From positions 461 through 64,460 of the forward strand of contig NZ_JALEGT010000093.1 in the NCBI RefSeq assembly GCF_022763305.1: a stretch of 64,000 bases of DNA, given 5' to 3'. The stretch comes from Marivita sp. (lineage in GTDB: Bacteria; Pseudomonadota; Alphaproteobacteria; Rhodobacterales; Rhodobacteraceae). Below the pieces are notes generated by a model. The model did no database searches, was not told the DNA's origin, and saw only the letters and a program-made list of their open reading frames with translations. How positions within the stretch are numbered: the stretch's first letter is position 1; the number at the start of each line of letters is the position of its first letter. Positions 3,202 through 52,871 of the stretch are shown piece after piece. Position numbers and translations under genes: made by a program.

Positions 3202-3492
3202 ATGTGTCTGGGAATACCGGGACAGATCGTCGAGATCACCGATGCCGACCGATTGATGGCGATGGCAGACATTTCCGGCGTGCGCCGTGAGGTGTCAGTG
3301 GCCTGCGTGGCCACCCCTGATCTGAATGATCTTCTGGGCGAATGGGCGCTGATCCATGTGGGCTTTGCCATGAGCGTGATCGACGCGGACGAGGCAGCAA
3401 AGACGCTGGAGGCGTTGCGCGGTCTTGGAGAGGCGCAGGAAACGCTGGAGGCGATGGCCGAAGGGACCGCAGCACTTGAGGGCACGCAATGA
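3202..3492 (+). CDS. hypC: hydrogenase maturation chaperone HypC
   Basis: N-terminus MCLGIPGQIVEI is the HypC signature. GAGGAGGA RBS upstream. 96 aa. Confidence 0.93.
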   Translation: MCLGIPGQIVEITDADRLMAMADISGVRREVSVACVATPDLNDLLGEWALIHVGFAMSVIDADEAAKTLEALRGLGEAQETLEAMAEGTAALEGTQ

Positions 3493-5696: not shown

Positions 5697-6092
5697 TCAG
5701 CGCGCAACCTCATAAAGTTCGAGCGGCAGGTCGTCCGGATCGCGGAAAAAGGTGAAACGGCACCCGGTGTAAGGGTCGATCCGAATGTTTTCGACCGCGA
5801 TGCCCCGTGCCTCGAGCCTGGTCTTCATGTCGGCGACATCGGAAACGGCAAAGGCCAGATGCCGCAGGCCGCGCGCTTCGGGGCGCGACGCGCGGGCGGG
5901 TGGATCGGGAAAGGAAAACAGCTCCACCTGCGATCCGTCGGGCAAGCCGAGATCCAGCTTCCACGACCCCCGCTCTTCGCGGAAATTCTCGGCGAGAACG
6001 GTCAGACCCAGCGTATCGATATAGAACGCCCTGGACCTGTCATAGTCCGAACAGATGATGGCGGCATGGTGAAGTCCGCGCAGATGCGCCAT
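5697..6092 (-). CDS. VOC (glyoxalase/bleomycin-resistance/dioxygenase) family protein
   Basis: Internal ATG of track ORF 5697..6173. MAHLRGLHHAAIICSDYDRSRAFY...HLAFAV is typical of YaeR-like VOC proteins. 131 aa. Confidence 0.8.
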   Translation of the reverse strand: MAHLRGLHHAAIICSDYDRSRAFYIDTLGLTVLAENFREERGSWKLDLGLPDGSQVELFSFPDPPARASRPEARGLRHLAFAVSDVADMKTRLEARGIAVENIRIDPYTGCRFTFFRDPDDLPLELYEVAR

Positions 6093-6216
6093 CGGCGTCG
6101 CTCCGTGTTTTGCGCCATTATGAAAGCAGCGGCCCGCCCCCGCAATGGGCCCACGACCGCGCCATCCGGACATCCCCGAGGGTTGACACCCGGTCGACCG
6201 CTGTTAGCGCTTTGGC

Positions 6217-6879
6217 ATGCGGAAGACAGACACCCACGTTGCGCCCGTGCGCACCCGAGACCCGGAGCGCACCCGGGCGCAGATCCTCGAAGCGGCGCTG
6301 ACCGAATTCGCGGCGCATGGCTTCGATGGTGCAAAGGTGCATGCGATTGCCGAAAGCGCGGGCTGCAATGCACGGCTGATCTATCATTACTTCGACAGCA
6401 AGGAGCGGCTCTACATCGCTGCCCTGCGTCGCATTTATTCAGAGATCCGCGCGCGCGAAGAGGATTTGCACCTCGATACGCTGCCGCCGGAACAGGCGAT
6501 CCGCCGTCTGACGGAAACCACCTTCGATTTCTTCGGAAACAACTCGGTTTTCCTGTCGATCACGCGCAGCGAGAACCTTCTGGGCGGGCGGTTCATCAGC
6601 CAGGAACCCGAGATCCAGAAGATGTCGCAACCGTTTCTCGACAAGATCGCCGATGTTCTGAAACGCGGGCATGAGGCTGGTGTTTTCCGCGACGGGATCG
6701 ACGCGTTGCAACTCTATGTCAGCATCGTTGCGCTAAGCGCACATCACATCAATGCCAGCCACACTCTGTCGGCCACCTTCGGGCGGGACTTGTCCACCGA
6801 GGCGTGGCGGCAGGACCGGCGACAGCATGTGATCGAGATGGTGCAGGCCGCCGTCCGTCAGCGCGAATCGAAGGCCTGA
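6217..6879 (+). CDS. TetR/AcrR family transcriptional regulator
   Basis: N-terminal HTH RAQILEAALTEFAAHGFDGAKVHAIAESAGCNARLIYHYFDSKERLY. Confidence 0.9.
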   Translation: MRKTDTHVAPVRTRDPERTRAQILEAALTEFAAHGFDGAKVHAIAESAGCNARLIYHYFDSKERLYIAALRRIYSEIRAREEDLHLDTLPPEQAIRRLTETTFDFFGNNSVFLSITRSENLLGGRFISQEPEIQKMSQPFLDKIADVLKRGHEAGVFRDGIDALQLYVSIVALSAHHINASHTLSATFGRDLSTEAWRQDRRQHVIEMVQAAVRQRESKA

Positions 6880-7037
6880 CCCGCGCCAAGGGTGCGACAT
6901 TGTATACCTCCGCATATGCAGATTTCTTGCTCAGACGGCGAAAATAACGCCTGCAAAAGAGGCAGCGCGAAGATAATTCAATTTTCATTTACTTAACCAC
7001 TTCCGGTTTCACGACGCGCTGCTGTTGGGTCGGCGGC

Positions 7038-7892
7038 ATGAACATGTCAGCCAACATCCCCGCTCCCACCGCGCAGCAGGCCAAACCTGCAGGCGTTCAT
7101 TCCCGACCGGCGTTGGAACTGCAGGACGCGTCCGTTGTCTTTGGCAGCGGAGACACCGCAGTCACGGCTCTGTCGCCCACAAACCTCAAGATGGAGCGCG
7201 GGGATTTCCTTGCGCTTGTCGGCCCATCAGGCTGCGGAAAGTCCACGATCCTCAAGCTCGTCAGCAACCTGATCCAGCCCAGCTCGGGTCTTGTGCTGGT
7301 GGGCGGGAAAGAGGCGAAGGCCAAGGAACTGCGCATCGGCATGGCGTTCCAGAACCCGACGATGCTGCCCTGGCTCACCATCGAGCAGAACATCCTGATG
7401 CCGCTCAAGATCGTGGCACCGTTCAAGCACACCTATCGGCAGGACAAGAAGGGCGCGTTCCGCGACCGCGTGCATGCGCTGCTGGCACAGGTGGGGTTGA
7501 AGGATTTCGCCAACCATTATCCCTGGCAGTTGTCGGGCGGCATGTTGCAGCGGTCCAATCTCTGCCGGGCGCTGGTGCATGAACCGGACCTGCTGCTGCT
7601 GGATGAACCCTTTGGCGCGCTCGACCAGTTCACCCGCGAAGAGCTGTGGCAGATCATGCAGACGCTGTATCTGGATCGCAAACCCACGGTTCTTCTGGTC
7701 ACGCATGACCTGCGCGAAGCGGGATACCTGGCCAACCGCATCTGCGTGATGAGCGCACGTCCGGGGCGGATCATCTCGGACGAGCCGGTGAACATCCCGC
7801 AACCGCGCGACATCGGCATGATCTATAGCCCCGAATTCGTCGAAATGACCCAAGGCCTGCGTGAGTTGATCGCGCAAGTCCGCAGCGCGTGA
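7038..7892 (+). CDS. ABC transporter ATP-binding protein (NitT/TauT family)
   Basis: Walker [10 protein letters not shown], signature LSGGMLQRSNL, Walker B LLLLDEPFGALD. Confidence 0.92.
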   Translation: MNMSANIPAPTAQQAKPAGVHSRPALELQDASVVFGSGDTAVTALSPTNLKMERGDFLALVGPSGCGKSTILKLVSNLIQPSSGLVLVGGKEAKAKELRIGMAFQNPTMLPWLTIEQNILMPLKIVAPFKHTYRQDKKGAFRDRVHALLAQVGLKDFANHYPWQLSGGMLQRSNLCRALVHEPDLLLLDEPFGALDQFTREELWQIMQTLYLDRKPTVLLVTHDLREAGYLANRICVMSARPGRIISDEPVNIPQPRDIGMIYSPEFVEMTQGLRELIAQVRSA

Positions 7893-7902
7893 GGATTTTG
7901 CA

Positions 7903-8676
7903 ATGACCGACTCTCAACGCATCCGAGTGCTGTCCAGCTCGCTGATCATCGGGTTCTTCCTGACATGGGAGGTGCTCTGCATAATCCTGAACGTGTCTGA
8001 CCTGATCCTGCCGCGCCCGTCCGAGATTTTGGTGACGATGTGGACGCGGTTCCCGGTGCTCTGGCCGCATATCCTGCAGACGCTCTATTCCACTTTGTTC
8101 GGCTTTTCGCTGGGCGTGATCATCGGGGTCGCTTTGGGCGTGATCGTGGGAACCTCGAAGATCGCCTATGCCGTGGCGTACCCCTTGCTGGTCGGATTTT
8201 CGTCGATCCCCAAGGTCGCGGTGGTGCCTATTTTCGTTTTGTGGTTCGGGTCGGGCACCACGCCCGCCGTGCTGACGGCGATGGTGATCTGCGTGTTCCC
8301 GATCGTCGTCAACATCGCCACGGGCCTTGCCACGACCGAGCCAGAACTTGAAGACGTGCTCAAGACGCTGGGGGCCTCAAAGACAGAGATCCTGTGGAAT
8401 GTCGGTCTGCCCCGCGCGATGCCCTATTTCTTTGCCTCGCTCAAAGTGGCGATCACGCTCTCCTTTGTGGGCGCGGTCCTGTCGGAGACCGTGGCGTCCA
8501 ACATGGGCATCGGCAACGTGATGATGACCGCCTCCTCAAACTTCCAGGTCTCGCTGGTCTTTGCCGGGCTGATCATCCTCGCCCTGATGGGGGTCGCGCT
8601 TTACGCGGTCTTCTCGTTCCTCGAACGCCGGGTCACCGGCTGGGCCACACGCGGCAACGACATCGCCGTCACCTGA
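7903..8676 (+). CDS. ABC transporter permease (NitT/TauT family)
   Basis: Multi-TM hydrophobic protein of 257 aa, placed between the ATPase and the binding protein. Confidence 0.88.
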   Translation: MTDSQRIRVLSSSLIIGFFLTWEVLCIILNVSDLILPRPSEILVTMWTRFPVLWPHILQTLYSTLFGFSLGVIIGVALGVIVGTSKIAYAVAYPLLVGFSSIPKVAVVPIFVLWFGSGTTPAVLTAMVICVFPIVVNIATGLATTEPELEDVLKTLGASKTEILWNVGLPRAMPYFFASLKVAITLSFVGAVLSETVASNMGIGNVMMTASSNFQVSLVFAGLIILALMGVALYAVFSFLERRVTGWATRGNDIAVT

Positions 8677-8715
8677 TCCGAAACTTCCCTCTCTCCAATC
8701 GAAAAGGACGACCTC

Positions 8716-9741
8716 ATGAAACACTCTCTGTTCGGTGCCGCCCTCGCCCTTCTGGCCGGAGCTGCCCCCGCCTTTGCCGAAATGACCGACATCCGCTTCA
8801 CACTCGGCTGGAAAACCCAAGGGTCGGACGCGCCCTTCCTGCTCGCACTGCACAAAGGCTATTTCGAGGAAGAAGGCCTGAACGTCACCATCGACCAGGG
8901 CGAAGGATCGGCCGCAACCGTGACGCGCATCATGGGCGGGGCCTATGACGCAGGTTTCGGGGACATCAACGCCATCATCCAGAACGCGGCCGCCCGTCCG
9001 GGCGAAGCGCCGGTCATGGTCTACCAGCTTTGGAACCGCCCGCCCTTTGCCATCGTGACGCCCAAGACCGCCGGGATCGAAACACCCGCCGATTTCGAAG
9101 GCAAGACGCTGGGCGGCGCGCAAGGCACGCCGACCACCCGCCTTTTCCCGGTCTTCGCCGAGCTGAACGGCATCAACCTTGATGCGGTCAAGCAAGAGAA
9201 CATGGCGCCGAACCTGCAGGAGCCGATGATGATCCGCGGCGACATCGACGGCGCGTTTGTCTTCACCTCGACCAGCTGGTTCAACCTGATCGCCAACCGT
9301 CAGGACCCGGCAAACGACTACAACTGGTTCAACTTCGAAGACTACGGGATGGACCTCTATTCCAACGGTCTGATGGTATCGCGCCAGTTGCTGGCCGAGA
9401 ACCCCGAAGCGGTGGCAGGTCTCGTCCGCGCGGTGAACAAGGCCACCATGGAAGTCGCGGCCAATCAGGACAGCTCGGTCGAGGCGATCCTTGCCTTCGA
9501 CAACCTGGTCGACCCGGAACTGGAACGCGCCCGTCTGGAATTCGCGCTGACCAACCTGATGAACGCGCCCGAAGTGACCGAGATCGGCATGGGCGATCTG
9601 GTGGACGAGCGTCTGACCCGTTCCATCGAGATCGTCGCCAAGGGCTATGGCCTCGACCGCCTGCCCGAAGCGTCGGAAATCTTCAACCGCTCTTTCCTGC
9701 CGCCGATGGAAACGCGCACCTTCGAAGTGACGCTGAACTGA
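8716..9741 (+). CDS. ABC transporter substrate-binding protein (NMT1/SsuA-like)
   Basis: Signal peptide MKHSLFGAALALLAGAAPAFA. Periplasmic-binding-protein-like sequence adjacent to the permease. Confidence 0.88.
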   Translation: MKHSLFGAALALLAGAAPAFAEMTDIRFTLGWKTQGSDAPFLLALHKGYFEEEGLNVTIDQGEGSAATVTRIMGGAYDAGFGDINAIIQNAAARPGEAPVMVYQLWNRPPFAIVTPKTAGIETPADFEGKTLGGAQGTPTTRLFPVFAELNGINLDAVKQENMAPNLQEPMMIRGDIDGAFVFTSTSWFNLIANRQDPANDYNWFNFEDYGMDLYSNGLMVSRQLLAENPEAVAGLVRAVNKATMEVAANQDSSVEAILAFDNLVDPELERARLEFALTNLMNAPEVTEIGMGDLVDERLTRSIEIVAKGYGLDRLPEASEIFNRSFLPPMETRTFEVTLN

Positions 9742-9750
9742 GCCACGCAA

Positions 9751-9791
9751 CAGACATGCGCCAAGGCCCTGCTTTGGCGCATGTTGTCTGT
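9751..9791 (+). other. intercistronic stem-loop after the binding-protein gene
   Basis: ACATGCGCCAA (9754-9764) pairs with TTGGCGCATGT (9774-9784) across a 9-nt loop. The stem is extendable with a bulge and has no trailing T-run. Likely an mRNA-stabilising or attenuating hairpin, not a full terminator. Confidence 0.4.
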
Positions 9792-9808
9792 CTGGGGATC
9801 GCGGACAT

Positions 9809-11266
9809 ATGACGAAAACCCTGATCCATGGCGCCGAGGTGCTTGTCGGGAACGACCAGTTTGCCGAGGTGTCGCTTATGATCGACGGCGACCGGATCGC
9901 GGCGATCCTGCCCAAGGGTGAAACCGTTACGGACGCCAAGGCACTGGATGCCAGCGGTCGCCTGATCATCCCCGGCCTTGTCAACGGACACACCCATTCG
10001 CATGGCGCACTGTCGCGCGGCGGTGTGCCGGATGATGCCACTCTTGAGACATTTCTGTCCGGGTCCGCATGGTTGAACGCCAACCGCAGCCATGACGATC
10101 TGTCACTTTGCGCGCAGCTGTCGGCGGTCGAGCTGATCCGCAAGGGCTGCACCGCCTGTTTCGACCTCTTCATCGAATTGCCCGGTCCGACGGTCGATGG
10201 CACCCATACCGTGGCCCATGCCTATCACGAGGTGGGCTTGCGCGCGGTCGTTGCGCCGATGATCGCGGACCAGACGATTTATCAGGCGCTGCCGGGGCTG
10301 CTCGACGCCTTCGACGGCCCGCTGAAAGACGCGGTGGCGGCGCTGAGCCTGCCGGATTGGGACAGCACGATGGCCGTCTGTTCCGAGGCGCTGCGCGACT
10401 GGCCGGTGCCCATGGATCGGGTGCGGCCGGGGATCGGGCCGACCATTCCGCTGCATTGCTCGGATCCGTTCCTGCAGGCCTGTGCGCGCCTCTCGGACGA
10501 CATCGGTGTGCCGCTTCAGACCCATCTGGCCGAAACGCGCATGCAGCAGATCATGGCGCAGCGCAAATACGGCACCTCGCTGGCAGAACACCTGTCTGAG
10601 CTTGGCGTGCTGTCGCCCCGCTTCAGCGGCGCGCATGGTGTCTGGCTGTCTGATGTGGAGATGGAGCTCCTCGCCGAAGCTGAGGCTGGCATCTCGCACA
10701 ATCCGATGAGCAATCTGCGGATCGGGTCAGGTATCGCACCCGTGCGCCGTATGGCAGATGCGGGCGTGACCATGGGCATCGGCACCGATGCCAGCAACAC
10801 CTCGGACGGGCAGAACATGTTCGAGGCGACCCGCCTTGCTGCCACCCTCAGCCGCGCCCAGAGCATCGACAGCACCGAGTGGGTCCGCACGCGCGAGGCG
10901 TTCGACATGGCGACGACCGGCAGCGCACGGCTGTTGGGGTTCGACAGGCTTGGGCAGATCGCCGAAGGCTGGCTCGCTGACCTTGTTTTCCTTGACGCGG
11001 GCTATTGCCACTACACGCCCCGACGCGCCCTGCTCGACCAGATCGTGTTCGCCGAAACCGGCGCCGCCGTGCGCGAGGTGATGATCGCGGGCCGGATGGT
11101 TTTCGCCGGGGATCGCATCCTGACGCTGGACGAGACCGCCCTGCGCAGCCGCGCCCTTGCCGCCGCCGAACGGATCACCCACGCCAATGCCGAGGCCCGC
11201 GTGATGAACGCCGCTGCCGCCGCAGTCGTCAAAGGCTTCTGCCTGCGCAACTGTGCTGCCCACTGA
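9809..11266 (+). CDS. amidohydrolase-superfamily enzyme (ATZ/TRZ / nucleobase-deaminase-like)
   Basis: Metal-binding PGLVNGHTHSHGA and downstream GIGTDASNTSD. 485 aa. Confidence 0.85.
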   Translation: MTKTLIHGAEVLVGNDQFAEVSLMIDGDRIAAILPKGETVTDAKALDASGRLIIPGLVNGHTHSHGALSRGGVPDDATLETFLSGSAWLNANRSHDDLSLCAQLSAVELIRKGCTACFDLFIELPGPTVDGTHTVAHAYHEVGLRAVVAPMIADQTIYQALPGLLDAFDGPLKDAVAALSLPDWDSTMAVCSEALRDWPVPMDRVRPGIGPTIPLHCSDPFLQACARLSDDIGVPLQTHLAETRMQQIMAQRKYGTSLAEHLSELGVLSPRFSGAHGVWLSDVEMELLAEAEAGISHNPMSNLRIGSGIAPVRRMADAGVTMGIGTDASNTSDGQNMFEATRLAATLSRAQSIDSTEWVRTREAFDMATTGSARLLGFDRLGQIAEGWLADLVFLDAGYCHYTPRRALLDQIVFAETGAAVREVMIAGRMVFAGDRILTLDETALRSRALAAAERITHANAEARVMNAAAAAVVKGFCLRNCAAH

Positions 11267-42823: not shown

Positions 42824-42933
42824 TGTTGCATGTCTCTCCCTGATTGGTTTGGTGCAGTCTCCTGCGCGACCTTGGTCGTTGCAAAAGCAACAAAAGTCAA
42901 TATCATTTCATTTGCAACGAGTTTGGAACCGCC

Positions 42934-43443
42934 ATGACGCCCGACACCTTTCACCTGTCGTCTTTCCTGCCCTACCGCCTTGCCGTGCTGTCCGAACGGG
43001 TCAGTCGGCGGCTGTCGGTGGAATACGGGCGGACGCACGGTCTGGTCGTCGCGGAATGGCGTGTGCTGGTGCATCTGCTGCGGTGCGGGGCTGTGTCGGT
43101 CCGGGACATCCACAATTGCGTCAATCTGGAAAAACCGCGCGTCAGCCGGGCCGTGTCACGGCTCGAAGCGGAGGGGCTGGTGCAGAAAACGCAAGGTGAA
43201 GGCGATGGGCGACTGGTCGCCATCTCGCTGACCGAAGCGGGACGCGACGTGCTGACGGACATCATCCCTGCTGCTACGCGGATCGAACGCAGCATGATGG
43301 AGGCCGTCAGCCCGGACGATCTGGCAACGTTCTTCCGCGTGATGGAGCGGATGCACGCGGTGCTGGACGATGATCCCGAGGCCAAACCGCGCACGGAGAT
43401 GGACCGACGCCCCGGGATCACCGCGTTGGCGCAACAGGGCTAG
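42934..43443 (+). CDS. MarR family transcriptional regulator (divergent from the hmgA unit)
   Basis: Internal ATG (MTPDTFHLSSFLPYRLAVL). Winged helix NLEKPRVSRAVSRLEAEGLVQKTQGEGDGRLVAISLT. Confidence 0.88.
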   Translation: MTPDTFHLSSFLPYRLAVLSERVSRRLSVEYGRTHGLVVAEWRVLVHLLRCGAVSVRDIHNCVNLEKPRVSRAVSRLEAEGLVQKTQGEGDGRLVAISLTEAGRDVLTDIIPAATRIERSMMEAVSPDDLATFFRVMERMHAVLDDDPEAKPRTEMDRRPGITALAQQG

Positions 43444-43637
43444 GTTTTTGCAATGCGCGCCTTCGGGCGCCTGGCCCTTCGCGACCCGGGTCCGCCTCGC
43501 CATGCGAGGATCAGGGCCGAAACGATCGCGGCGACGCCGCCCAGCAAGGGCAGCGTAGAGGCGATCATGACCACCTCGTGATGGGCCGCTGCCGGGGTGG
43601 CGACAAGCGCCAGCAAGACCGCAAGCGCTCTCCTCAT
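43440..43637 (-). CDS. small membrane protein: predicted signal peptide, then HHE, one TM helix and a basic tail
   Basis: Internal ATG in ATGA overlap with the upstream ORF. MRRALAVLLALVATPAAA|HHEVVMIASTLPLLGGVAAIVSALILAWRGGPGSRRARRPKARIAKT. High GC3. No family recognised. Confidence 0.55.
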   Translation of the reverse strand: MRRALAVLLALVATPAAAHHEVVMIASTLPLLGGVAAIVSALILAWRGGPGSRRARRPKARIAKT

Positions 43638-44062
43638 GTCACATCCCGCGCGGCGGGGTGGAGTTTGAGGAAGGCGCGCAGGTCGGTCACCTGTTTGGCG
43701 CGCAATGAGACATAGACAAAGCCCATATTCGTCCGCTCCGTCACCATGTCGCCGGGATACGGCAGATAGGACAGTTCCTGTGATCCGAAGGAGGGCGAGG
43801 CCGTGCCGACCTGCCATTCCGTGGTCAGTTGCACATCCACCAGTTTCATCGAGGGTCCGCCATCGGGGGCCGCGATTTCCAAAGGCACACCCGCCAGCCG
43901 AAGGTAAGACATCTTGTCCTTTGCCGCGACAAACCCGTCGATGAACTGCGCGGTGAGCACCTGCAGCTCTTCCGCCTTGTCGGCGTCAGGCATATGGCTG
44001 TGCAGGTGGTCGCCATGGCTGTGGTTGTGGCCGATATGGCCGTTCACGATATCATGTGGCAT
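43634..44062 (-). CDS. uncharacterised His-rich protein (MPHDIVNGHIGHNHSHGDHLHSH...)
   Basis: ATG 44062 has AAGGAAAG upstream and overlaps the hydrolase stop by 11 nt. The alternative ATG at 44092 has no RBS. Nine His occur in the first 23 residues, followed by about 115 aa with no motif I recognise. Confidence 0.65.
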   Translation of the reverse strand: MPHDIVNGHIGHNHSHGDHLHSHMPDADKAEELQVLTAQFIDGFVAAKDKMSYLRLAGVPLEIAAPDGGPSMKLVDVQLTTEWQVGTASPSFGSQELSYLPYPGDMVTERTNMGFVYVSLRAKQVTDLRAFLKLHPAARDVT

Positions 44063-45296
44063 TGGACCACCGCTTTCCTTCGAACGCGCCATGCGGGATC
44101 GTCACGGGCTTATCGATATGGCGCTTGTGTTTGCCAAGATTGCCCGAGGCGACAAGGCTGCCCAGCACATCGACGATCACGCGGGTGCCCATGAGTGCGG
44201 TGATTTCGGACTGGTCATAGGGCGGCGCCACTTCGACCAGCTCCATGCCGCAGATGCCTTCGGCTGCGACCTTGGAGGCCAAGGCCAGTGCCTCGCGCGG
44301 CAGGAAGCCACCGGGTTCGGGCCAGCCTGTGCCGGGCACAAACCCGCAGTCGATGCTGTCGATGTCGAAGGACATGTAAACCATGTCGACCCCATCCCAC
44401 GCCATCTCGAGCGCCATCTCGGCGGTCTTGTCGACACCCATCTTTTCCATGTCACCCATGGTGATGATGTTGGTTTCGCGTTCGCGCGCGACCTTCACCG
44501 CCTCGCGGGGGACCTGCCAGCCGCCGATGCCCACCTGCACCAGGTTCTTGGCAGGCACGTTGGGCAGGTTCGTGGAATGGAACCACGGGGTTGTGTGCAT
44601 CCGCTCGTCCAGATCCTTCTCCTGAATGTCGGCGTGGCGGTCGAAATGCACGATGCCGATCTTCTTGGACGTACATTCCGCAATCCCGCGCACACAGGGA
44701 AAGCCGATGGAATGGTCGCCGCCGATCATGATCGGCAAACTGCCCGAGGAAAACACGTGGCTGACGGCGCGGCTGATCTGGTCAAAGGTCTTTTCGATAT
44801 TGGCGGGGATCGTGAACACGTCGCCCGCATCACAGAGCGTCATCTGTTCACGCAGATCGACGGCCATTTCGTAATTGTAGGGCGTGTAGAGCGCACTGAT
44901 CTTGCGCACACCCTGCGGGCCGAACCGAGTGCCTGCGCGATAGGTCGTGCCGCCGTCAAAGGGAATGCCCAGAACGGTGGCGTCATAGTCCCCCACCTCG
45001 GTCACGTCCTCGGCATAGGGGGCCTTGAGAAAGGTGTTGATCCCGGCGTAATGCGGCAGCTCCCCACGGGCGAAGGTGGGGATGGACTTGTCCTCGATGC
45101 TGTCGGCCCCGGTCAGGCCCATGCGCAGCGCCCATTTGCGCTCCTGCTCCCAGCCGCTGCCGGGGATGCCCGCCTCGTCATGCATCGCCTTCCAGCCGCG
45201 CAGCTTGGTCAGGTCGGGATGGTGATGGCGCGCCTCGGTGCGGGGGTGATCCGCAGGGTGGTGCGACCGGGTCCGGTCACGCGGGCTGTGGAACAT
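44052..45296 (-). CDS. extended arginase/agmatinase-family ureohydrolase (candidate guanidine hydrolase, GdmH-like)
   Basis: Metal-site motifs GGDHSIG, FDRHADI, SFDIDSID and ELVEVAPPYD. There is an N-terminal extension of about 70 aa beginning MFHSPRDRTRSHHPADHPRTEARHHHPD. GC3 stays high through the extension, so the upstream ATG is preferred; it overlaps the ATPase end by 20 nt. Confidence 0.85.
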   Translation of the reverse strand: MFHSPRDRTRSHHPADHPRTEARHHHPDLTKLRGWKAMHDEAGIPGSGWEQERKWALRMGLTGADSIEDKSIPTFARGELPHYAGINTFLKAPYAEDVTEVGDYDATVLGIPFDGGTTYRAGTRFGPQGVRKISALYTPYNYEMAVDLREQMTLCDAGDVFTIPANIEKTFDQISRAVSHVFSSGSLPIMIGGDHSIGFPCVRGIAECTSKKIGIVHFDRHADIQEKDLDERMHTTPWFHSTNLPNVPAKNLVQVGIGGWQVPREAVKVARERETNIITMGDMEKMGVDKTAEMALEMAWDGVDMVYMSFDIDSIDCGFVPGTGWPEPGGFLPREALALASKVAAEGICGMELVEVAPPYDQSEITALMGTRVIVDVLGSLVASGNLGKHKRHIDKPVTIPHGAFEGKRWSNAT

Positions 45297-46044
45297 GGGA
45301 AGCCTCCTTCAGGGTCTGGTACGGGATGCCGCCATTGCGGGCATCGAAATCGTAGGTGATGGTCGCGCCATAGCGGGACGGGTCGTGCGGGTCCCAACGG
45401 GGCTTATCGAAGACGAGAACGCGGTCACCCAGCTTGAACGCTTCTTCGAGGTCATGGGTGACCATGAACACGGTCATGCCGGTTTCGGCGCGCAGGTCCT
45501 GCAGGAAATCATGCATGGACACGCGCGTTCCGGGATCGAGCGCGCCGAAGGGTTCATCGAGCAGAAGGACACGCGGTTTCGCGGCCAGTGCCTGAGCGAT
45601 GGCAAGGCGCTGCTGCATGCCGCCCGACAGCGTGGCCGGGTAGTTGTCGGCGACGTGATCCAGGCCGATACGCGCGAGCGTCCGGTCGGCGCGCTCGCGG
45701 GCGGCCCTTGATTTTTCTCCGAAAAATCGGCCCCACCCGCTGCGGAAGCTTTCACCAGCCACGATGTTGTCCCGCACCGTCATATGCGGAAAGACCGAAT
45801 AGCGCTGAAACACGATGCCCCGGTCCAAACCCGGTTCGCGCGCAGGCTCTGCCCCGTCGATGCGGATCTCGCCACGCGACGGACGCTCCTGAGCCAGCAG
45901 AAGCCGCAGGAAGGTGGACTTGCCACAGCCGGACGCTCCGACGATGGAGATGAACTCTCCCTCGTCCACGTCCAAATTCACGCGTTCGATGATCGGGCGG
46001 TTGTCATAGGTTTGGAACAGGTCGCGGACGGTGACAAAGCTCAT
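45277..46044 (-). CDS. ABC transporter ATP-binding protein (NitT/TauT family)
   Basis: Internal ATG (MSFVTVRDLF) in ATGA overlap with the permease. Motifs [35 protein letters not shown]. Confidence 0.9.
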   Translation of the reverse strand: MSFVTVRDLFQTYDNRPIIERVNLDVDEGEFISIVGASGCGKSTFLRLLLAQERPSRGEIRIDGAEPAREPGLDRGIVFQRYSVFPHMTVRDNIVAGESFRSGWGRFFGEKSRAARERADRTLARIGLDHVADNYPATLSGGMQQRLAIAQALAAKPRVLLLDEPFGALDPGTRVSMHDFLQDLRAETGMTVFMVTHDLEEAFKLGDRVLVFDKPRWDPHDPSRYGATITYDFDARNGGIPYQTLKEASHVPQPA

Positions 46045-46853
46045 AGCCCCTCCTCCGCCCACGGGTAGACACGGCGCGAGGCCCAGCGCAGAAGCCAGTC
46101 CATCGCGAAGGCAAGCAGGGTGATCCAGATCACGTAGGTCAGGATGACGTCCATCGCGAGATAGCGGCGCACCAGGAAAATGCGGTAGCCGAGGCCCAGA
46201 TCCGCGGCGATGGCCTCGGCCGCGATCAGGAAAAGCCATGCGGGGCCAAGCGACAGGCGCACCGCCTGTATGAGGCGCGGCATGACCTGCGGCAGCGCCA
46301 CGCGGATCGCAATGACCCAGCTTGACGCGCCCAGTGTCTGCGCCTTGACCAGAAGTTCCTGCGGAATTTCGAGCGTGCGCTGACTCAGATCGCGGATGAT
46401 GAAGGGCAAGGTGCCGACGACGATCAGCACCACCTTGGAGAGCTCACCCAGCCCGAACACGATGAAGAGGATCGGCAACAGCGCCAGTGGTGGGATCATC
46501 GACAGCACGGCCACGAATTGCGACAGCAGGTTGCGCACAAGCGGGAACAGACCAATAAGCAGGCCGAAGACCAGCCCGACGCTGGCCGAGATGGCGATGC
46601 CCAGCCACAGCCGTTGCAGGCTGGCCCATGTGTCATGCCAAAAGAGGATGCGCCCCGTGCGTCTGTCGCCTTCGGTGAGCAGGCGCATCATCGTATCGCC
46701 AATCGTTCCAGGCGCGGGCAACAGCTTGTCCGACGGGTTTTCCGTGAGCCGGATATCCGACCCCATCGCATAGGCGATCATCACCGCTGCAAAGGGCAGC
46801 AGCACGAGAAACAGCGCGAGCGCGGGGCCGGGTTTTATGTTGATCAGACGCAT
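46041..46853 (-). CDS. ABC transporter permease (NitT/TauT family)
   Basis: Multi-TM, 270 aa, between the binding protein and the ATPase. Confidence 0.88.
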   Translation of the reverse strand: MRLINIKPGPALALFLVLLPFAAVMIAYAMGSDIRLTENPSDKLLPAPGTIGDTMMRLLTEGDRRTGRILFWHDTWASLQRLWLGIAISASVGLVFGLLIGLFPLVRNLLSQFVAVLSMIPPLALLPILFIVFGLGELSKVVLIVVGTLPFIIRDLSQRTLEIPQELLVKAQTLGASSWVIAIRVALPQVMPRLIQAVRLSLGPAWLFLIAAEAIAADLGLGYRIFLVRRYLAMDVILTYVIWITLLAFAMDWLLRWASRRVYPWAEEGL

Positions 46854-46892: not shown

Positions 46893-47939
46893 TTAGAGGC
46901 TGCCGTCGGCAGCCATCTGCATGTAGGTCGTGTCGAAGCGGAACATGACGTTGTTCGCATCACCCGTGATCGAGCCGTCCGGATAGGCCACACCGACGAA
47001 ATCCGCCGAGGGTGCACCTTCACCCAGAATGCCCTTGTCGAACAGGAATTCGGCAACATTGACCATCGTCTGCGGCAGCTCTGCGCTTTCGGTGAAGGCC
47101 ACCGCGGCGGCGGGATCGTAGAACATCTCGGTCGAGGCAAGCTGGGCCTTGTATCCGGTCAGATCGGTGCCCGAGGCGTCGGCCATCGCGGTCAGGACGT
47201 CTTCGTCGCCTGCCGCCATCAGGCTCATCACCTCGTACCACGCCCCCACCAGCGCCTTGCCGAAATCCGGGTTCGCGTCGAGCGTTTCGGTGTTCACCAC
47301 CATCAGGTCGATGATTTCGCCGGGGATGTCGGAGCTGTCGAAAATGCTGTTGGCCCCCGGTGTTTCGAGGATCGAGGACACCAGCGGGTTCCATGTGACC
47401 ACCGCTTCGACATCGTCAGTGGCAAAGGCCGCGATCATGTCGGCGTCCGACGTGTTGATCACCCCACCCAAATCCGCCTCGGACAGGCCCACACTGTCGA
47501 GCCCCCGCGCCAGCAGATAGTGCGAAACCGACAGTTCCACGAGGTTCACCGGCTTGCCCGCCAGACTCGTCAGATCGCCCTCGCCCTTGAGGATCACCGC
47601 GTCATTGCCGTTGGAATAGTCACCCACGATCAACGCCGTGGTGTCGACACCGCCACCCGAGGGGATCGAAAGCGTGTCCATGTTGGTGGCGGACACACCA
47701 TCGAATTGACCGGCGGTGTATTGGTTGATCGACTCGATATAATCGTTGATCTGCACGATCTCGACATCGATGCCGTATTTTTCGGCCCATTTGTCCATGA
47801 TGCCGCTGTCTTCGAGATAGCCCCAGGGCATCCAGCCGACATAGATCGACCAGGCGACACGGAATTCGGTCTTCTCTTGCGCGACAGCGCCGGTCGCAAG
47901 GCAAAGAGCAAGGGCGGTGGTGGTTACAAGCTTTTTCAT
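46893..47939 (-). CDS. ABC transporter substrate-binding protein (NitT/TauT type; first gene after the riboswitch)
   Basis: Signal peptide MKKLVTTTALALCLATGAVA. Periplasmic-binding-protein sequence. Confidence 0.88.
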   Translation of the reverse strand: MKKLVTTTALALCLATGAVAQEKTEFRVAWSIYVGWMPWGYLEDSGIMDKWAEKYGIDVEIVQINDYIESINQYTAGQFDGVSATNMDTLSIPSGGGVDTTALIVGDYSNGNDAVILKGEGDLTSLAGKPVNLVELSVSHYLLARGLDSVGLSEADLGGVINTSDADMIAAFATDDVEAVVTWNPLVSSILETPGANSIFDSSDIPGEIIDLMVVNTETLDANPDFGKALVGAWYEVMSLMAAGDEDVLTAMADASGTDLTGYKAQLASTEMFYDPAAAVAFTESAELPQTMVNVAEFLFDKGILGEGAPSADFVGVAYPDGSITGDANNVMFRFDTTYMQMAADGSL

Positions 47940-48228: not shown

Positions 48229-48256
48229 AAAAAACGGGCACACGGGAAAGTGCCTG
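48229..48256 (-). terminator. possible intrinsic terminator after the response-regulator gene
   Basis: The minus strand reads GGCAC-TTTCCCGT-GTGCC-CG-TTTTTT. The stem is short (5 bp), so this is tentative. Confidence 0.4.
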
Positions 48257-48302: not shown

Positions 48303-48905
48303 TCAGATCAGACCAGATTGCCGGGCGCGGGCGACGGCGCCTTTCGTATCAAGCGCGTCGAATTTTCGGCAGAGGGTCTTGACGACGAATGCGACCGTCA
48401 CCTCTTTCAAACCCAACGCCGCAGCGATCTCGGGCACGGATTGCCCCTGATCGAGGCCTGTCAGAACCTGCACTTCGCGCGTCGTCAGATCGGCGACGCG
48501 GGATTGCGGCGCAGGCTCGGCGTCGCTTTCGAGCATGTTGACGACCTGCCCCTCGGCCATGGCACGGATGGCCTGAACATAGCTTTTCGCCGGCAGCTTC
48601 TTGGGCAGAAACCCCGCCGCGCCAAGGCGTAACGCCTCGTCCACGATATGCTGGGCGAGATTGCCGGACATGAGCGCGACCGGCGCTCCCCTGCCCTCGG
48701 TCAGGGCGCGGCGCAGACCGTCGAGCCCGTCCATACCGGGCATGTGGTAATCCAGCAGGATCAGGTCGAACGGCGGATGCTCTGCGACCTGGCGCAGGAC
48801 ACTGTCCAGATCTTCGGCCAATGTCACACCGATCTCTTGACGCGACAGCATCGCGTCGAAGAGTTCGCGCAACATCTCCTGATCATCGGCAATCAATACC
48901 CGCAT
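48303..48905 (-). CDS. LuxR/FixJ-family response regulator
   Basis: Receiver MRVLIADDQ...LLDYHMPGMDG and C-terminal LuxR HTH LTTREVQVLTGLDQGQSVPEIAAALGLKEVTV. Confidence 0.92.
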   Translation of the reverse strand: MRVLIADDQEMLRELFDAMLSRQEIGVTLAEDLDSVLRQVAEHPPFDLILLDYHMPGMDGLDGLRRALTEGRGAPVALMSGNLAQHIVDEALRLGAAGFLPKKLPAKSYVQAIRAMAEGQVVNMLESDAEPAPQSRVADLTTREVQVLTGLDQGQSVPEIAAALGLKEVTVAFVVKTLCRKFDALDTKGAVARARQSGLI

Positions 48906-48908
48906 GGT

Positions 48909-51900
48909 TCAGCCAGTCTGTTCCGCTGCGGCCAGCAAGGCCAATTCCGCCTGAAGCACCAGTGATCGTCGGTCAATGGGCTTTGGCAGGACGGCGGAAA
49001 AATGCACACCGGTCCGACCGGCTTCACCGGCAAGGGCGGTCACAAGAAGCATCGGCAATCCGGGCACGAGACGTCGCGCCTCATCGGCCAGTTGCGCACC
49101 GGTCATGTGCGGCATGTCGAAATCCGTGACCACGAGGTCCCAGCTGCCGGGATCATCCCTGAGTGCGTCGATCACGTCCTCGGGATTGGTTGTGGACGCG
49201 ACTTCGGCCCCGGCCGCTTCGAGATAGGCGGTGATCACATCCAGCACTTCGGGATGGTCATCAACCACGATGATCATCCGACCATCGAGACGGCCCGTTG
49301 CGGCATCAGTGGAAACAGGAACCGACGGGAGCGACTGAACGGCGTCCACCGGCCAGAACACGTCGAACCGTGCTCCTTCGCCGGGGGCAGTCGTCAGACG
49401 CAGCGCACCGCCATTGTCCTCGATCACCGACGACACGACGGCCAGTCCCAGACCGGTGCCCAGATCACCTTTCGTGGTGAAGTAGGGCATGAGAATCTGC
49501 GAGGCGACGTCCTCGGACATGCCCGGCCCTGTGTCTTCGACGGTCAGGCAGGCGTATCGCCGCGCCGGATCAACGCGCCCGACAGACATCGGCCCCATGT
49601 CTCCAACCTGCTGCGGCGCGGCCAGTCGGATCGTGACCGTTCCCGGCGCACCGGCAAGCGCATCGCGCGCATTGATCGCGAGATTGAGCAAAAGCTGCAG
49701 AACATCGGTCGGGTCGGCCAAGGCCTCGACCGCGGTTTCGGGCAGGGTCAGGGACAGGCGGGTCGGCGCGCGCAGGCTGGACCGCACAAGCTCGGCCGCC
49801 TCCTTGACCGGCTGCCGCAGGTCGAGATTGACACGGGCCGACTTTCGCGCTCCGAGCGTGAGCAGACGTTTCACCAATCCGGCCGCCTGATCCGACGCCG
49901 CCAGAATGCGGGACGCGCCCGAGGCGGTCGATGCGTCCTTGTCGGCGGTTTCCATGATCAGCGACGCCCCGCCGGAAATGATCGCCAGCAGATTGTTGAA
50001 ATCATGGGCAAGCCCCGCCGCCATCTGGCCGATCATCTCGCGGCGTTGTGCCAGTTGCAGTTCATTGAGAAGGCGTTCGCGTTCGGCCCGTTCGCGGCGG
50101 CGGACGGAGATGTCGCGCGTGATGCAGAGCAGGCCACCATCAGCGTTCACCGTGAGAGAGACATCCTGTTCGACGGGGCTGCCGTCGCGCGCAAGGCCGA
50201 CTGTCTCGCCTGACCAGCCGCCATCCCGCATCAACGCCGGGAAGACGTGCTTTTCGATCCATGCAACCTCTTCGGGCCCATAGAGCATGGCATAGGACTG
50301 GCCAAGAACCTCCTCTTCACGCGTGTATCCGAACATCTCCAGATGCGCTCGGTTCATATAGACAAAGCGCCCTTCGGCGTCGGTGATGGCGATCCCGTCA
50401 AGGCTTGCTTCCATCGCAGCGGCCCGATCGGCCAAGGCGCGTTGCTCGGCAAGCTTGAGGTCCGTGATGTCGACGCGCAATTCAACACGGCCGCCTGCGG
50501 GCATGGCCTTTTCGAAAACGCGCAGCCACGTCCCGTCGGGCAGCATCTCTTCGAATTCCCGGTCCGGCTCGGAATGCTGCGCCAGTCTTTCGGCCAGCCA
50601 CTCTTCCTCGCGGCCAATCGCTTCGGGATACTGGCCCACCTGCACGCCGTAGCGCATGATGCTTTCGAACTCGGCACCGATGACGATGGCCGGTTCGGAC
50701 AGGGCATGGATTTGGCGGAACCGGCTGTTGCAGATCACCAGCCGATCCTCTGCATCATACAGCACGAAACCATCCTGCAGCGCCTCGACGGCCTGCTCGA
50801 GATTGGCGCGCGCCAGGGCCGCCTCACCGGCCGCGCGACGCAGCGATTCCGCCTGTGCGCGTTGTTCGGTGATGTCGACCTCGACGGCAAGAAAGCCCGC
50901 AAGACCACCTTCGTCATTGTGCATCGGCTGGATGTCGATCGAGAGCCAGTATTCGATGCCGTTACGTGCCTTGTTCAGCAATTCGACCTGCACCGCCTGA
51001 CCGCGGTCAAGCGCGTCGCGCATCTTGCCCACGGTTTCGGGATCCGTCTTGTCGGACTGGAGAAGCTTGCCCGGGTTCTGCCCCCTGACCTCGTCAAGCG
51101 TCCAGCCGGTTGTCTGCTCGAACGCGTCGTTGACCCATTCGATACGACGTTTTGCATCCGTGATGACGACGAGGTTGGTGGTGCGGCGGGCAATTTCCGA
51201 CAGCCGTTCAAGTTCCGTCGCTTTCTTGCGTGCCTCCGAGATGTCCCGCAGCGCGATCAGATAGCCCTGATCGCCGATCGCAGACCCCGTCAACTGCCAC
51301 CATCCGGACAAAGGCGGCAGGAGTGTCATCTCGAAGGTGTGTCGGACGACCGGTGCTCCGGCGTCCAGTTCGGCCATCTTGGCACGCAACGTCCGCACCA
51401 TCTCGGGGTTGAGCTTTTCTTCGGGCAGGCGGTTGAAGAAGGCATCAAAAACCGCATCGGGGATTTCGATCGTGCCCGAGTGCCAGGACGTAAACCGTCC
51501 TTCCCGGTCCAACTCGACGATGAGATCCGGCATTGCGGACAAGACCGCCTCGAGCCGGGTGCGCTGCGACAGGGTCTCGGCATGGGCGGACACCAGCCGC
51601 TCTTCGGCGTCGCGACGTGCCAGAACCGACATGATGACCTTGGCCACCGAGCGGATCAGATACACCTCGCCGGGCAGGAAATTGCGCAACTCGCGGACCG
51701 CGTCAAAACCCACGAACCCGCGAAACGCCCCGTTTTCCATCATCGGCACGGTCAGGAGCGATTGGATGTCCTGCTCCAGCAGCCCGTCCTTGTCCGGCGC
51801 ATCATCCGGCAAGGCCGCGACATCCGGGATCAGGACGTCTTCACCCGACGCGAATTGCGTGCGCCAATGGTCAATCGTCTCGGCGGGCATGCCCTGTAGA

Positions 51901-52871
51901 AGGTCGCGGACAGGGGTGATGCCCGGCGCGCACCATTCGTGCGTGTTGTCGATAAAGGCGCCGTCCGAGCGAAGACGGAACACATAGACGCGGTCCATAC
52001 CGGTCACTTCGCCCATACGCGCCAGGGCGGTGTCGATCGCAGCATCGGTGTCCTGCAGCGACGCGCTCAGCAAGGCATCCAGAATGCCGATGACGTGCCC
52101 CTGCATTTCGGTCAGGCGCGCAAAGGCATTCTGCACCGTTTCAAGCGGCGCATCCAGAACCGCGTCGGACCGTTCCAGCGGCTTGCCTTCGACAAGCGCC
52201 AGCAGCAAGGCATTGCGACGTGCTTCGCGCAGCGCCAGCAACGCCTGCGTTGCCAGTCGGGAGACATGTTCAAGGCTGCGCAGATCGCCCGCAGTATATC
52301 GCTTGGCCAGCTTGCAGCCGATGAAAAAGGCGCCGGCGGTCTCGTCCGGCATTTCAAGCGGCACGATCATGCCGGACGCGGGCACATTGCTCCCGCCCGG
52401 CCAAGGCAGACCCTCGATCAGACCCGTCAATTTCGCAATGCGTCTTGGCCGCGTGATCAAGGCCGCCGGAAGCGGCAATCGCTGACCCTGATGCGTCTTG
52501 TCGGCGCAGACCGACACTACCGTATGATCCCCTTCGGCCTGAACGAAAAAGCAGTCGCGTCCGCCGATTTCGCGCTTGAGCACGTCAAGCAGGGCCTGCA
52601 TGGCTTCATCGGCGCCGGATTTGCCGGTCAACGCCTTCAACGCTTCGGACAGGATCAACCGCTCCTTGAGCGCCTTGGCTTCACGGAGACGGATCGTTTC
52701 GGTGTCTGCAAGCGCCGCGCGCACGGCCTCCGTTTCGGCAAGAAGCCGACGGTTTATCTCCTGGATTTCACGGTTTTTCGCTTCGAGTTGCGCCTCGGCA
52801 TCCAGCCGCGCCTGTTTTTCACGCTCATACAGGCTCCGTGAGATCATCAGGTCTCGAGTATCGCCATTCAT
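48909..52871 (-). CDS. cytoplasmic hybrid sensor histidine kinase (coiled coil, GAF, multiple PAS, HisKA, HATPase, receiver)
   Basis: 1320 aa with no obvious TM segment. H-box GLAHDFNNLL, G-boxes DTGPGM and GTGLGLAVV, C-terminal receiver IIVVDDHPE...VTDFDMPHMTG. Several PAS-like repeats have (I/V)TER/QR ends. Confidence 0.9.
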   Translation of the reverse strand: MNGDTRDLMISRSLYEREKQARLDAEAQLEAKNREIQEINRRLLAETEAVRAALADTETIRLREAKALKERLILSEALKALTGKSGADEAMQALLDVLKREIGGRDCFFVQAEGDHTVVSVCADKTHQGQRLPLPAALITRPRRIAKLTGLIEGLPWPGGSNVPASGMIVPLEMPDETAGAFFIGCKLAKRYTAGDLRSLEHVSRLATQALLALREARRNALLLALVEGKPLERSDAVLDAPLETVQNAFARLTEMQGHVIGILDALLSASLQDTDAAIDTALARMGEVTGMDRVYVFRLRSDGAFIDNTHEWCAPGITPVRDLLQGMPAETIDHWRTQFASGEDVLIPDVAALPDDAPDKDGLLEQDIQSLLTVPMMENGAFRGFVGFDAVRELRNFLPGEVYLIRSVAKVIMSVLARRDAEERLVSAHAETLSQRTRLEAVLSAMPDLIVELDREGRFTSWHSGTIEIPDAVFDAFFNRLPEEKLNPEMVRTLRAKMAELDAGAPVVRHTFEMTLLPPLSGWWQLTGSAIGDQGYLIALRDISEARKKATELERLSEIARRTTNLVVITDAKRRIEWVNDAFEQTTGWTLDEVRGQNPGKLLQSDKTDPETVGKMRDALDRGQAVQVELLNKARNGIEYWLSIDIQPMHNDEGGLAGFLAVEVDITEQRAQAESLRRAAGEAALARANLEQAVEALQDGFVLYDAEDRLVICNSRFRQIHALSEPAIVIGAEFESIMRYGVQVGQYPEAIGREEEWLAERLAQHSEPDREFEEMLPDGTWLRVFEKAMPAGGRVELRVDITDLKLAEQRALADRAAAMEASLDGIAITDAEGRFVYMNRAHLEMFGYTREEEVLGQSYAMLYGPEEVAWIEKHVFPALMRDGGWSGETVGLARDGSPVEQDVSLTVNADGGLLCITRDISVRRRERAERERLLNELQLAQRREMIGQMAAGLAHDFNNLLAIISGGASLIMETADKDASTASGASRILAASDQAAGLVKRLLTLGARKSARVNLDLRQPVKEAAELVRSSLRAPTRLSLTLPETAVEALADPTDVLQLLLNLAINARDALAGAPGTVTIRLAAPQQVGDMGPMSVGRVDPARRYACLTVEDTGPGMSEDVASQILMPYFTTKGDLGTGLGLAVVSSVIEDNGGALRLTTAPGEGARFDVFWPVDAVQSLPSVPVSTDAATGRLDGRMIIVVDDHPEVLDVITAYLEAAGAEVASTTNPEDVIDALRDDPGSWDLVVTDFDMPHMTGAQLADEARRLVPGLPMLLVTALAGEAGRTGVHFSAVLPKPIDRRSLVLQAELALLAAAEQTG

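Follow-up and report, generated by a model that had tools for sequence, protein, structure and literature searches.

The hydrolysis of guanidine has only recently been recognised as a widespread route of nitrogen acquisition; to our knowledge its enzyme, the guanidine hydrolase (guanidinase) GdmH, is one of only a handful of enzymes that use nickel without belonging to the classical nickel enzymes, and the only guanidinase loading system known to us is the HypA/HypB-like pair GhaA/GhaB of cyanobacteria. GdmH depends on Ni and reaches its full activity only with the help of Ni-loading proteins (PMC12186494, PMC12704784, PMC11410670). In Synechocystis gdmH is co-transcribed with ghaA and ghaB, the products of which are HypA/HypB-like maturases loading nickel (PMC12186494, PMC12704784), and the metformin hydrolase operon carries hypA, hypB and ureJ (PMC10927577). 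In the case of the comammox Nitrospira guanidinase no chaperones were found, the nickel loading was described as unclear and the recombinant enzyme was under-metallated (PMC11410670). Here we analyse a stretch of 64,000 nucleotides from Marivita sp. (contig NZ_JALEGT010000093.1, hereafter the window), in which gdmH is followed by a gene for a His-rich protein of 142 amino acids (aa), and we propose that this protein probably serves GdmH as a dedicated accessory factor. Of the roles that can be envisaged, that of a metallochaperone binding nickel, or of a local store of the metal, appears the most likely.

Results

A His-rich gene behind gdmH

The His-rich gene occupies the minus strand from 44062 to 43634, TGA stop included, and its 142-aa translation is exactly the one quoted in an earlier note, which had been made from the letters of the window. 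The ATG (44062..44060) lies inside the final codons of the arginase-family open reading frame (ORF), gdmH, whose stop is the TGA at 44054..44052, and the two genes share 11 nucleotides (nt), ATGCCACATGA, in agreement with the overlap that the note had described. This overlap is preserved in 52 of the 79 loci introduced below, where the sequence of the junction, GAAGGAAAGCGGTGGTCCAATGCCACATGA with a Shine-Dalgarno-like GAAGGA, is nearly invariant. An in-frame ATG further upstream (44092) would yield a 152-aa version, the extension of which is unconserved and lies inside gdmH; the start with MPHD was preferred because 118 of 120 close homologues begin in this way and because the junction hardly varies.

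The upstream enzyme matches the guanidinases of solved structure with E 1.3e-164 (Synechocystis Sll1077, 7ESR/7OI1) and 4.7e-162 (N. inopinata, 9FEK), versus E 1.7e-48 for the next arginase-family (ureohydrolase) class. These matches identify it as an orthologue of GdmH, the Ni-dependent guanidinase, and set it apart from the other ureohydrolases. Furthermore the His-rich gene stands on the same strand as an RF00442 aptamer and downstream of it, that is, in the layout of a Guanidine-I riboswitch operon. The earlier note had placed the hydrolase correctly in the arginase family, and had missed both its identity as a guanidinase and the riboswitch operon.

High-GC genomes yield many spurious ORFs, dozens of them in this region, and a non-functional chance ORF over the end of gdmH could be suspected; however, this reading is already refuted by the homologue searches and by the pattern of codon changes. 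In 37 ungapped homologous syntenic loci the differences at codon positions 1, 2 and 3 number 393, 269 and 1754, third positions thus dominating, and 1552 synonymous codon changes were counted versus 439 non-synonymous ones, a pattern by which the gene is under purifying selection. Moreover, the homologues run to thousands, down to 25% identity, and the fold predicted by AlphaFold2 is a confident one.

Conservation of the gene pair

Among species-representative genomes 318 stretches encode a relative of the His-rich protein, and the best 80 of them, almost all from Rhodobacterales, were compared; the window is closest to Marivita among these syntenic loci (96% identity). In all 79 testable loci gdmH is directly upstream of the His-rich gene, the 80th locus being cut by a contig end. 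The genes of the ABC importer are likewise retained (substrate-binding protein in 70, permease in 74 and ATPase in 76 of the 80 loci), the end of the permease gene and the start of the ATPase gene falling at the same coordinate across the compared loci, and the Guanidine-I riboswitch was found in the same position in each of 10 close loci sampled. Divergent members of the family, 25-40% identical to the query, sit immediately after an arginase-family gene in 11 of 11 cases when inspected in their own contexts, and their GdmH, where tested, is 71-76% identical to that of the window; the riboswitch also heads divergent operons (L083, L084, L086 and Sinorhizobium fredii NGR234). The absence of homologues from syntenic loci had been named in the earlier note as an argument against a partner of the hydrolase, and both the close and the divergent sets turned out to be adjacent to gdmH throughout.

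In the 79 Rhodobacterales loci the surrounding 7 kb encode neither a HypB/UreG-type GTPase nor a HupE/UreJ, and in the divergent loci the neighbouring genes include none of a HypA or HypB Pfam family. A HupE/UreJ nickel permease gene (Pfam E 6e-45) stands immediately downstream of the family member in Devosia (L085), in L088 and on pNGR234b of S. fredii NGR234 (L092), followed in Devosia by a CDF cation-efflux gene. In L059 (Inquilinaceae) ureD is coupled by ATGA directly after the His-rich gene with ureG further on, and the neighbour in L086 is an entire urease cluster. These HupE/UreJ and ureD neighbours point to nickel handling. In L059 (7402-8310 and downstream) the small protein is embedded between the guanidinase and urease maturation genes; in L092 (2903-8249), from a model rhizobium, the riboswitch precedes the genes of substrate-binding protein, permease, ATPase, GdmH, family member (7097-7636) and HupE/UreJ. 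Immediately upstream there is a gene for allophanate hydrolase, and the family member has the form MHGGHHHHH...GHN...WQVPH.

The C-terminal tail of the window GdmH, which begins HKRHIDKPV (window 44052-44120, minus strand), reaches past the solved structures. A tail of the form HKxxIDKPV is common to nine of nine partner GdmH proteins (including L081-L089) and is lacking in the guanidinase structures of Synechocystis and N. inopinata; by this correlation, seen in a small sample of sequences, it may be a docking element.

Guanidinase-like genes also occur elsewhere: those of the actinobacterial Rubrobacter (L090, a plasmid of R. indicoceani, 5714-7068, and L091; 57-63% identity, one with a Guanidine-I riboswitch of its own) are followed by a solute symporter gene, with no small protein or annotated HypA/HypB, and urease genes are nearby in L090. 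The census from the side of the enzyme was limited to plasmids and comprises 11 records, too few for statistics. Genes for CMD/AhpD-like and MBL-fold proteins lying between gdmH and the His-rich gene were considered and set aside as occasional inserts, not core components of the operon. The CMD/AhpD-like insert of about 130 aa was seen in L004, L010, L011, L014, L021, L060 and L080 (about 6600-7011), where its stop keeps the 11-nt overlap, and the insert of L018 (6080-6979) is a 299-aa MBL-fold hydrolase.

Histidine-rich tail and folded core

Of the 23 N-terminal residues, MPHDIVNGHIGHNHSHGDHLHSH, 8 are His; the earlier note had counted nine, the ninth His of the protein being H135. The binomial probability of 8 His in 23 residues is 1.3e-6 at the His frequency of the window ORFs (3.8%) and 2e-8 at 2.2%. 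In all six frames an equal density is reached elsewhere in the window only by the His stretch of HypB, at about 899-977, which the note had drawn on for comparison and had placed at 930-1020.

An AlphaFold2 model based on a 56-sequence alignment (pLDDT 87, pTM 0.71) divides the protein in two. Residues 1-24 are predicted to be disordered (pLDDT about 57), and residues 25-141 form a confident alpha+beta domain, with pLDDT above 92 over residues 30-135, in the predicted order of a long helix, a short helix, five strands and a C-terminal helix. Within this core F40, D49, L54, P60, L74, G86, P90, P101, P103 and Y117 are conserved in the alignment. No His or Cys is conserved there, and the query protein has no Cys at all, therefore any metal chemistry would have to sit in the tail.

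In 18 close sequences M1, P2, H3, D4, G8, H9, G11, H12, N13, H14, H16, H19, L20, S22 and H23 of the tail are invariant. The divergent subfamily typically begins MHRGHDHDHH: His2 occurs in 112 of 117 members (an acidic residue 3 in only 12 of these 112 MH- members), GHN in all 117 and WQxP in 114, and the median number of His in the first 45 residues is 11. Read from these alignments, the tail is a set of position-specific motifs and more than a compositional bias. Across the branches of the family the His tract moves between the N- and the C-terminus; it is kept at either terminus in 55 of 103 representatives, an undercount, since frameshifted entries are included, and some family members carry at least 20 His in the tail. 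The core is probably a GdmH-docking domain.

A family without a match in Pfam or NCBIfam

The protein, regarded as an orphan in the earlier note, belongs to a family of more than 3,600 proteins. A word-indexed search returned 1464 close homologues, all of them unnamed or "hypothetical" and with Roseobacter-group proteins at the top; another 2226, divergent ones, came from a profile built on the subfamily that had diverged furthest. When 1.8 billion cluster representatives were searched exhaustively with a profile, 142 clusters at 50% identity emerged, 77 of them with E 1e-10 or better. The His-rich protein has no Pfam or NCBIfam match at E up to 1, none of 56 diverse family members matches any Pfam family, and a profile search of PDB sequences with the family matched His-tags only. 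Foldseek with the predicted model, a check proposed in the note, found no neighbour in the PDB (best E 0.35, TM-score at most 0.25) or in BFVD (best E 0.07, TM-score at most 0.30), and homology to a known unrelated family did not emerge from either database; weak rows for COMM-domain and HU-like proteins were discarded as noise (probability at most 0.18, TM-score at most 0.25). Neither Pfam (2025) and NCBIfam (2026) nor the literature that could be searched, which largely excludes subscription papers, yielded a description of the family.

Some apparent fusions with GdmH (P0153, P0189, P0234, P0251) were rejected as frameshifted or read-through gene calls that contain out-of-frame GdmH sequence. 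P0204, P0239 and P0257, together with P0153, P0234 and P0251, give the impression of lacking His or of being joined to GdmH and are apparently out-of-frame or read-through entries, with ITT/IIT runs where His codons are expected; therefore the counts of His-rich members are underestimates.

A coupled, predicted small membrane protein

The His-rich gene is followed by a 65-aa ORF which encodes MRRALAVLLALVATPAAA-HHEVV, with a signal peptide ending in ATPAAA, a single transmembrane helix and a tail of basic character. In 46 of the 80 loci the His-rich gene has a comparable ORF behind it, 41 times with an ATGA (-4) overlap, and the predicted mature N-terminus is HHE in 29. The peptide family has 87 members, all from the Roseobacter group, one of them 100% identical in a Marivita sp. 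metagenome-assembled genome, and the peptide has no Pfam match, HupE_UreJ included.

The 65-aa ORF occupies the position which HupE/UreJ has in rhizobia, immediately after the His-rich gene. The two proteins are further alike in that each has a signal peptide and, by the predicted cleavage, a mature chain beginning with His (AYA/HTGHG in HupE/UreJ of Devosia, ALA/HSGNDH in that of NGR234 and AAA/HHEVV in the window peptide); they differ in that the peptide has one transmembrane helix and 50-73 residues and is restricted to the Roseobacter group, whereas HupE/UreJ has about 190 residues and several transmembrane helices. The peptide is predicted to be a lineage-specific small membrane protein with an N-terminal His-His facing the periplasm; that it captures nickel in the periplasm, or helps to take it up, is put forward purely as a hypothesis.

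The operon and other genes of the window

The features of the operon are collected in Table 1. Its genes all share the minus strand, their ends overlapping or almost touching, and no terminator-like site was found between 44052 and 43440, from gdmH to the end of the 65-aa ORF. The importer genes probably encode a guanidine importer; its binding protein is of the TIGR03427 type, named "urea-carboxylase-associated", and the cyanobacterial counterpart GimABC has been described as a guanidine importer (PMC12704784).

Table 1. Features of the riboswitch-headed gdmH operon, in order of transcription
Feature	Coordinates	Strand	Remarks
Guanidine-I riboswitch aptamer, RF00442	48019..48123	-	78.9 bits vs gathering score 63, E 2.3e-12, full length; heads the operon
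Periplasmic substrate-binding protein of a NitT/TauT-type ABC importer	46893..47939	-	TIGR03427 ABC_peri_uca, E 1.3e-158, 527 bits vs cut-off 334
ABC transporter permease	46041..46853	-	BPD_transp_1, E 4e-21
ABC transporter ATPase	45277..46044	-	ABC_tran, E 8e-35; likely start MSFVTV, ATGA overlap with the permease stop
gdmH, guanidine hydrolase orthologue	44052..45296	-	start 45296 or 45185; Arginase Pfam E 5.5e-75
His-rich gene, residues 1-24 (tail)	43991..44062	-	MPHDIVNGHIGHNHSHGDHLHSHM; N-terminal M-P-H-D, GHN motif, HLHSH; predicted disordered
His-rich gene, residues 25-142 and stop (folded core)	43634..43990	-	alpha+beta, without a solved structural relative
65-aa ORF	43440..43637	-	ATG 43637..43635 overlaps the TGA (43636..43634) of the His-rich gene as ATGA

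A hairpin resembling a terminator, with a T-run (48237-48254, minus strand), immediately precedes the riboswitch and ends a response-regulator gene (48303-48905) and a gene for a 1320-aa hybrid sensor kinase (48909-52871), both on the minus strand; the gdmH operon therefore appears to be a transcription unit of its own. The divergent MarR gene (42844..43443) was considered as a part of the system and rejected, being conserved in only 3 of the 80 loci. A second ABC transporter of the NMT1/TauT type (ATPase, permease and NMT1-like binding protein), followed by an amidohydrolase-family gene, lies on the plus strand at 7038-11266 and is unrelated to the riboswitch operon. A hydrogenase maturation cluster, also on the plus strand, encodes HypB (884-1720), a sigma54-type response regulator (1558-3198), HypD (3489-4634) and HypE (4631-5680). 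The HypB shows the sequence MCNVCGC, a long His stretch and a GSGKTT P-loop.

Discussion

His clusters had suggested a Ni/Zn/Co metallochaperone to the earlier note, which had not recognised the hydrolase as a guanidinase. Since the hydrolase is a guanidinase in a Guanidine-I riboswitch operon, the His tail now has a specific metal, Ni, and a specific client. The context is strong but circumstantial: GdmH as client, the near-universal pairing, HupE/UreJ or ureD neighbours and the HypA-like N-terminus. We infer from it that the 142-aa protein would bind nickel, interact physically with GdmH and transfer the metal independently of a nucleoside triphosphatase (NTPase), and that it would stand in for the cyanobacterial HypA/HypB-like pair GhaA/GhaB. 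The putative physical contact is favoured indirectly by the close and constant linkage of the two genes, by their translational coupling and by the C-terminal tail peculiar to the partner GdmHs.

The following course of events can be envisaged. Guanidine would open the riboswitch, and importer, GdmH and small protein would be made from one transcript, the last by translational coupling to gdmH, which would set the stoichiometry. The tail, predicted to be disordered, might then capture Ni(II) at a site formed by the N-terminal amine and His2 or His3-Asp, comparable to the MHE of HypA, and by further His residues (GHN, HLHSH). The Cys-free, His-poor core might dock on the GdmH hexamer, possibly at the C-terminal HKxxIDKPV tail, and the His tail could hand Ni to the binuclear site of GdmH without a dedicated NTPase.

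Several observations weigh against a nickel-delivering accessory factor. At least one lineage is truly His-poor and yet linked to gdmH (P0133/P0382), and with such members beside gdmH the core must have a role independent of the tail. HypB, with a His stretch of its own, is encoded about 40 kb from the gdmH operon and could load GdmH. The comammox Nitrospira and Rubrobacter guanidinases have neither a family member nor GhaAB nearby, thus an adjacent partner is not universal. Finally, the preference for Ni over Zn, Co or Cu is read from the genomic context, and the core offers no conserved metal ligand.

Because His-poor members exist and HypB is encoded elsewhere in the genome, we keep in consideration, although we hold it unlikely, that the protein acts as a subunit of GdmH without catalytic function, structural or regulatory in nature (it might protect the hexamer from its chaotropic substrate, or gate or inhibit the enzyme), with a tail that senses metal or is incidental and with nickel coming from HypA/HypB or UreE/UreG or entering spontaneously. 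The universally conserved part of the protein is indeed the folded core, without metal ligands, nearly His-free members stay linked to gdmH, the partner GdmHs have the C-terminal tail that stand-alone guanidinases lack, and the superfamily provides a precedent in the non-catalytic MfmB of metformin hydrolase (PMC10927577). Such a subunit would not, however, account for the invariant residues at fixed positions of the tail (MPHD, GHN, HLHSH or WQxPH), which are not mere composition, for the His tracts kept at one terminus or the other in more than half of the representatives, itself an undercount, or for the location beside HupE/UreJ and ureD. A general buffer or store of nickel (or of Zn/Co) in the manner of Hpn or the HypB His stretch, which would raise the local metal or guard against its toxicity with no specific docking or insertion, appears quite improbable to us: it leaves unexplained why a well-folded core of 110 aa is conserved in 142 clusters, why the gene adjoins gdmH so strictly, and gdmH alone, and why His-poor members survive, and the tail in the window has only 8 His. 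A His-rich tail, predicted to be disordered, with 20 or more His in some members and variable in length and position as is typical of storage tracts, would nevertheless suit a buffer, as would the CDF cation-efflux gene adjoining the Devosia operon.

His-rich motifs also bind Zn, Co and Cu by established coordination chemistry, and another step or another metal (a filter against Zn or Cu, or placement of Mn in a mixed Ni/Mn site) or a metal-unrelated role such as protection against guanidine stress has to be weighed as well. The crystal of the N. inopinata guanidinase contains one Ni and one Mn per subunit (PMC11410670), but Mn is poorly bound by His-rich sites, the transporter encoded next to some of the genes belongs to the HupE/UreJ nickel-permease family, and the sequence gives no hint of a chaperone for denatured proteins; this explanation we consider very improbable.

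A bolder form of the accessory-factor proposal can be offered as tentative, and as rather doubtful in its full extent. The protein may represent an unrecognised family of NTPase-independent nickel insertases, with a fold without a solved relative, that replaces GhaA/GhaB in Alphaproteobacteria; a HypA-like amine/His site would lie in its tail, the core would recognise the C-terminal tail of GdmH, and in roseobacters it would be teamed with the 50-73-aa membrane micro-protein, whose periplasmic N-terminal His-His would substitute for the rhizobial HupE/UreJ.

The accessory-factor proposal bears on the stated question of how guanidinases without GhaAB get metallated (PMC11410670). If true, it would explain the maturation of guanidinase in abundant marine Rhodobacterales and in soil rhizobia, it would add a new fold to the few nickel chaperones and put to the test whether NTP hydrolysis is dispensable for a binuclear ureohydrolase site. 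It would also provide a practical tool for obtaining fully active guanidinase or metformin-hydrolase-type enzymes (in bioremediation or in engineered cyanobacteria) and an annotation for thousands of "hypothetical proteins". S. fredii NGR234 carries the full operon, therefore the hypothesis of a nickel partner is directly testable by genetics.

Comparison with known nickel proteins

The system resembles that of GhaA/GhaB in the gdmH operon of Synechocystis and that of HypA/HypB in the metformin hydrolase operon, where accessory genes likewise stand directly behind a Ni-dependent ureohydrolase under a Guanidine-I riboswitch (PMC12704784, PMC10927577). It differs from these HypA/HypB-type systems in that the His-rich protein has no sequence or fold relationship to them and is one small protein instead of two. 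The two CxxC Zn motifs of HypA/GhaA (PF01155) are missing from a protein with zero Cys, and no similarity to the PF01155 profile was found with the query (E up to 1) or with 56 diverse members.

By the specificity of methionine aminopeptidase M-P-H-D is expected to mature to P-H-D and M-H-x to keep its Met, and both starts, after maturation, would present X-His at a free N-terminus. The resemblance to the MHE of HypA, as read from sequence alone, is analogous, not identical, with MPHD in the close homologues and MH-, rarely with an acidic third residue, in the divergent ones. HypA MHE binds Ni(II) via the N-terminal amine, His2 and Glu3, and RcnR and NmtR do so via the N-terminal amine and His3 (PMC7055735).

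The P-loop GxxxxGK[ST] of HypB, UreG and CobW (PF02492) does not occur in the His-rich protein, which has no cobW match either, and no HypB-type GTPase partner is encoded in the gdmH operon or in the 7-kb surroundings mentioned above. The statement of the earlier note that there is neither a CxxC pair nor a P-loop is borne out, and so is its failure to recognise any motif of HypA, HypB, UreE, UreG or SlyD, given the negative Pfam, NCBIfam and Foldseek searches. The FKBP domain of SlyD-type proteins has no Pfam or structural match in the protein.

A similar architecture is found in two small nickel chaperones, UreE of urease and CooJ of CO dehydrogenase: both consist of a small folded domain with a flexible His-rich tail of variable length and are encoded beside their client Ni enzyme. 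The His-rich tail of Klebsiella UreE is cited in PMC7055735. UreE itself, which has an N- and a C-terminal domain (PF02814/PF05194) and a conserved His that binds metal at the dimer interface, was not matched in Pfam, in PDB sequences or by Foldseek against the PDB, which includes UreE structures, and in contrast to UreE and CooJ the tail of the present family is usually N-terminal, with a defined His2/His3 motif. Dense His tracts, thought to store or buffer nickel, are shared with Hpn, Hpn-like proteins and the HypB His stretch; however, Hpn-type proteins are essentially all tract, without a conserved folded domain, whereas in the present family the 110-aa core is the most conserved part and His-poor members exist. 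It should be emphasized that His-rich accessory proteins for nickel, encoded next to a nickel enzyme, are a known functional kind, and that the family, the fold, the single-gene, presumably NTPase-free format and the client are new.

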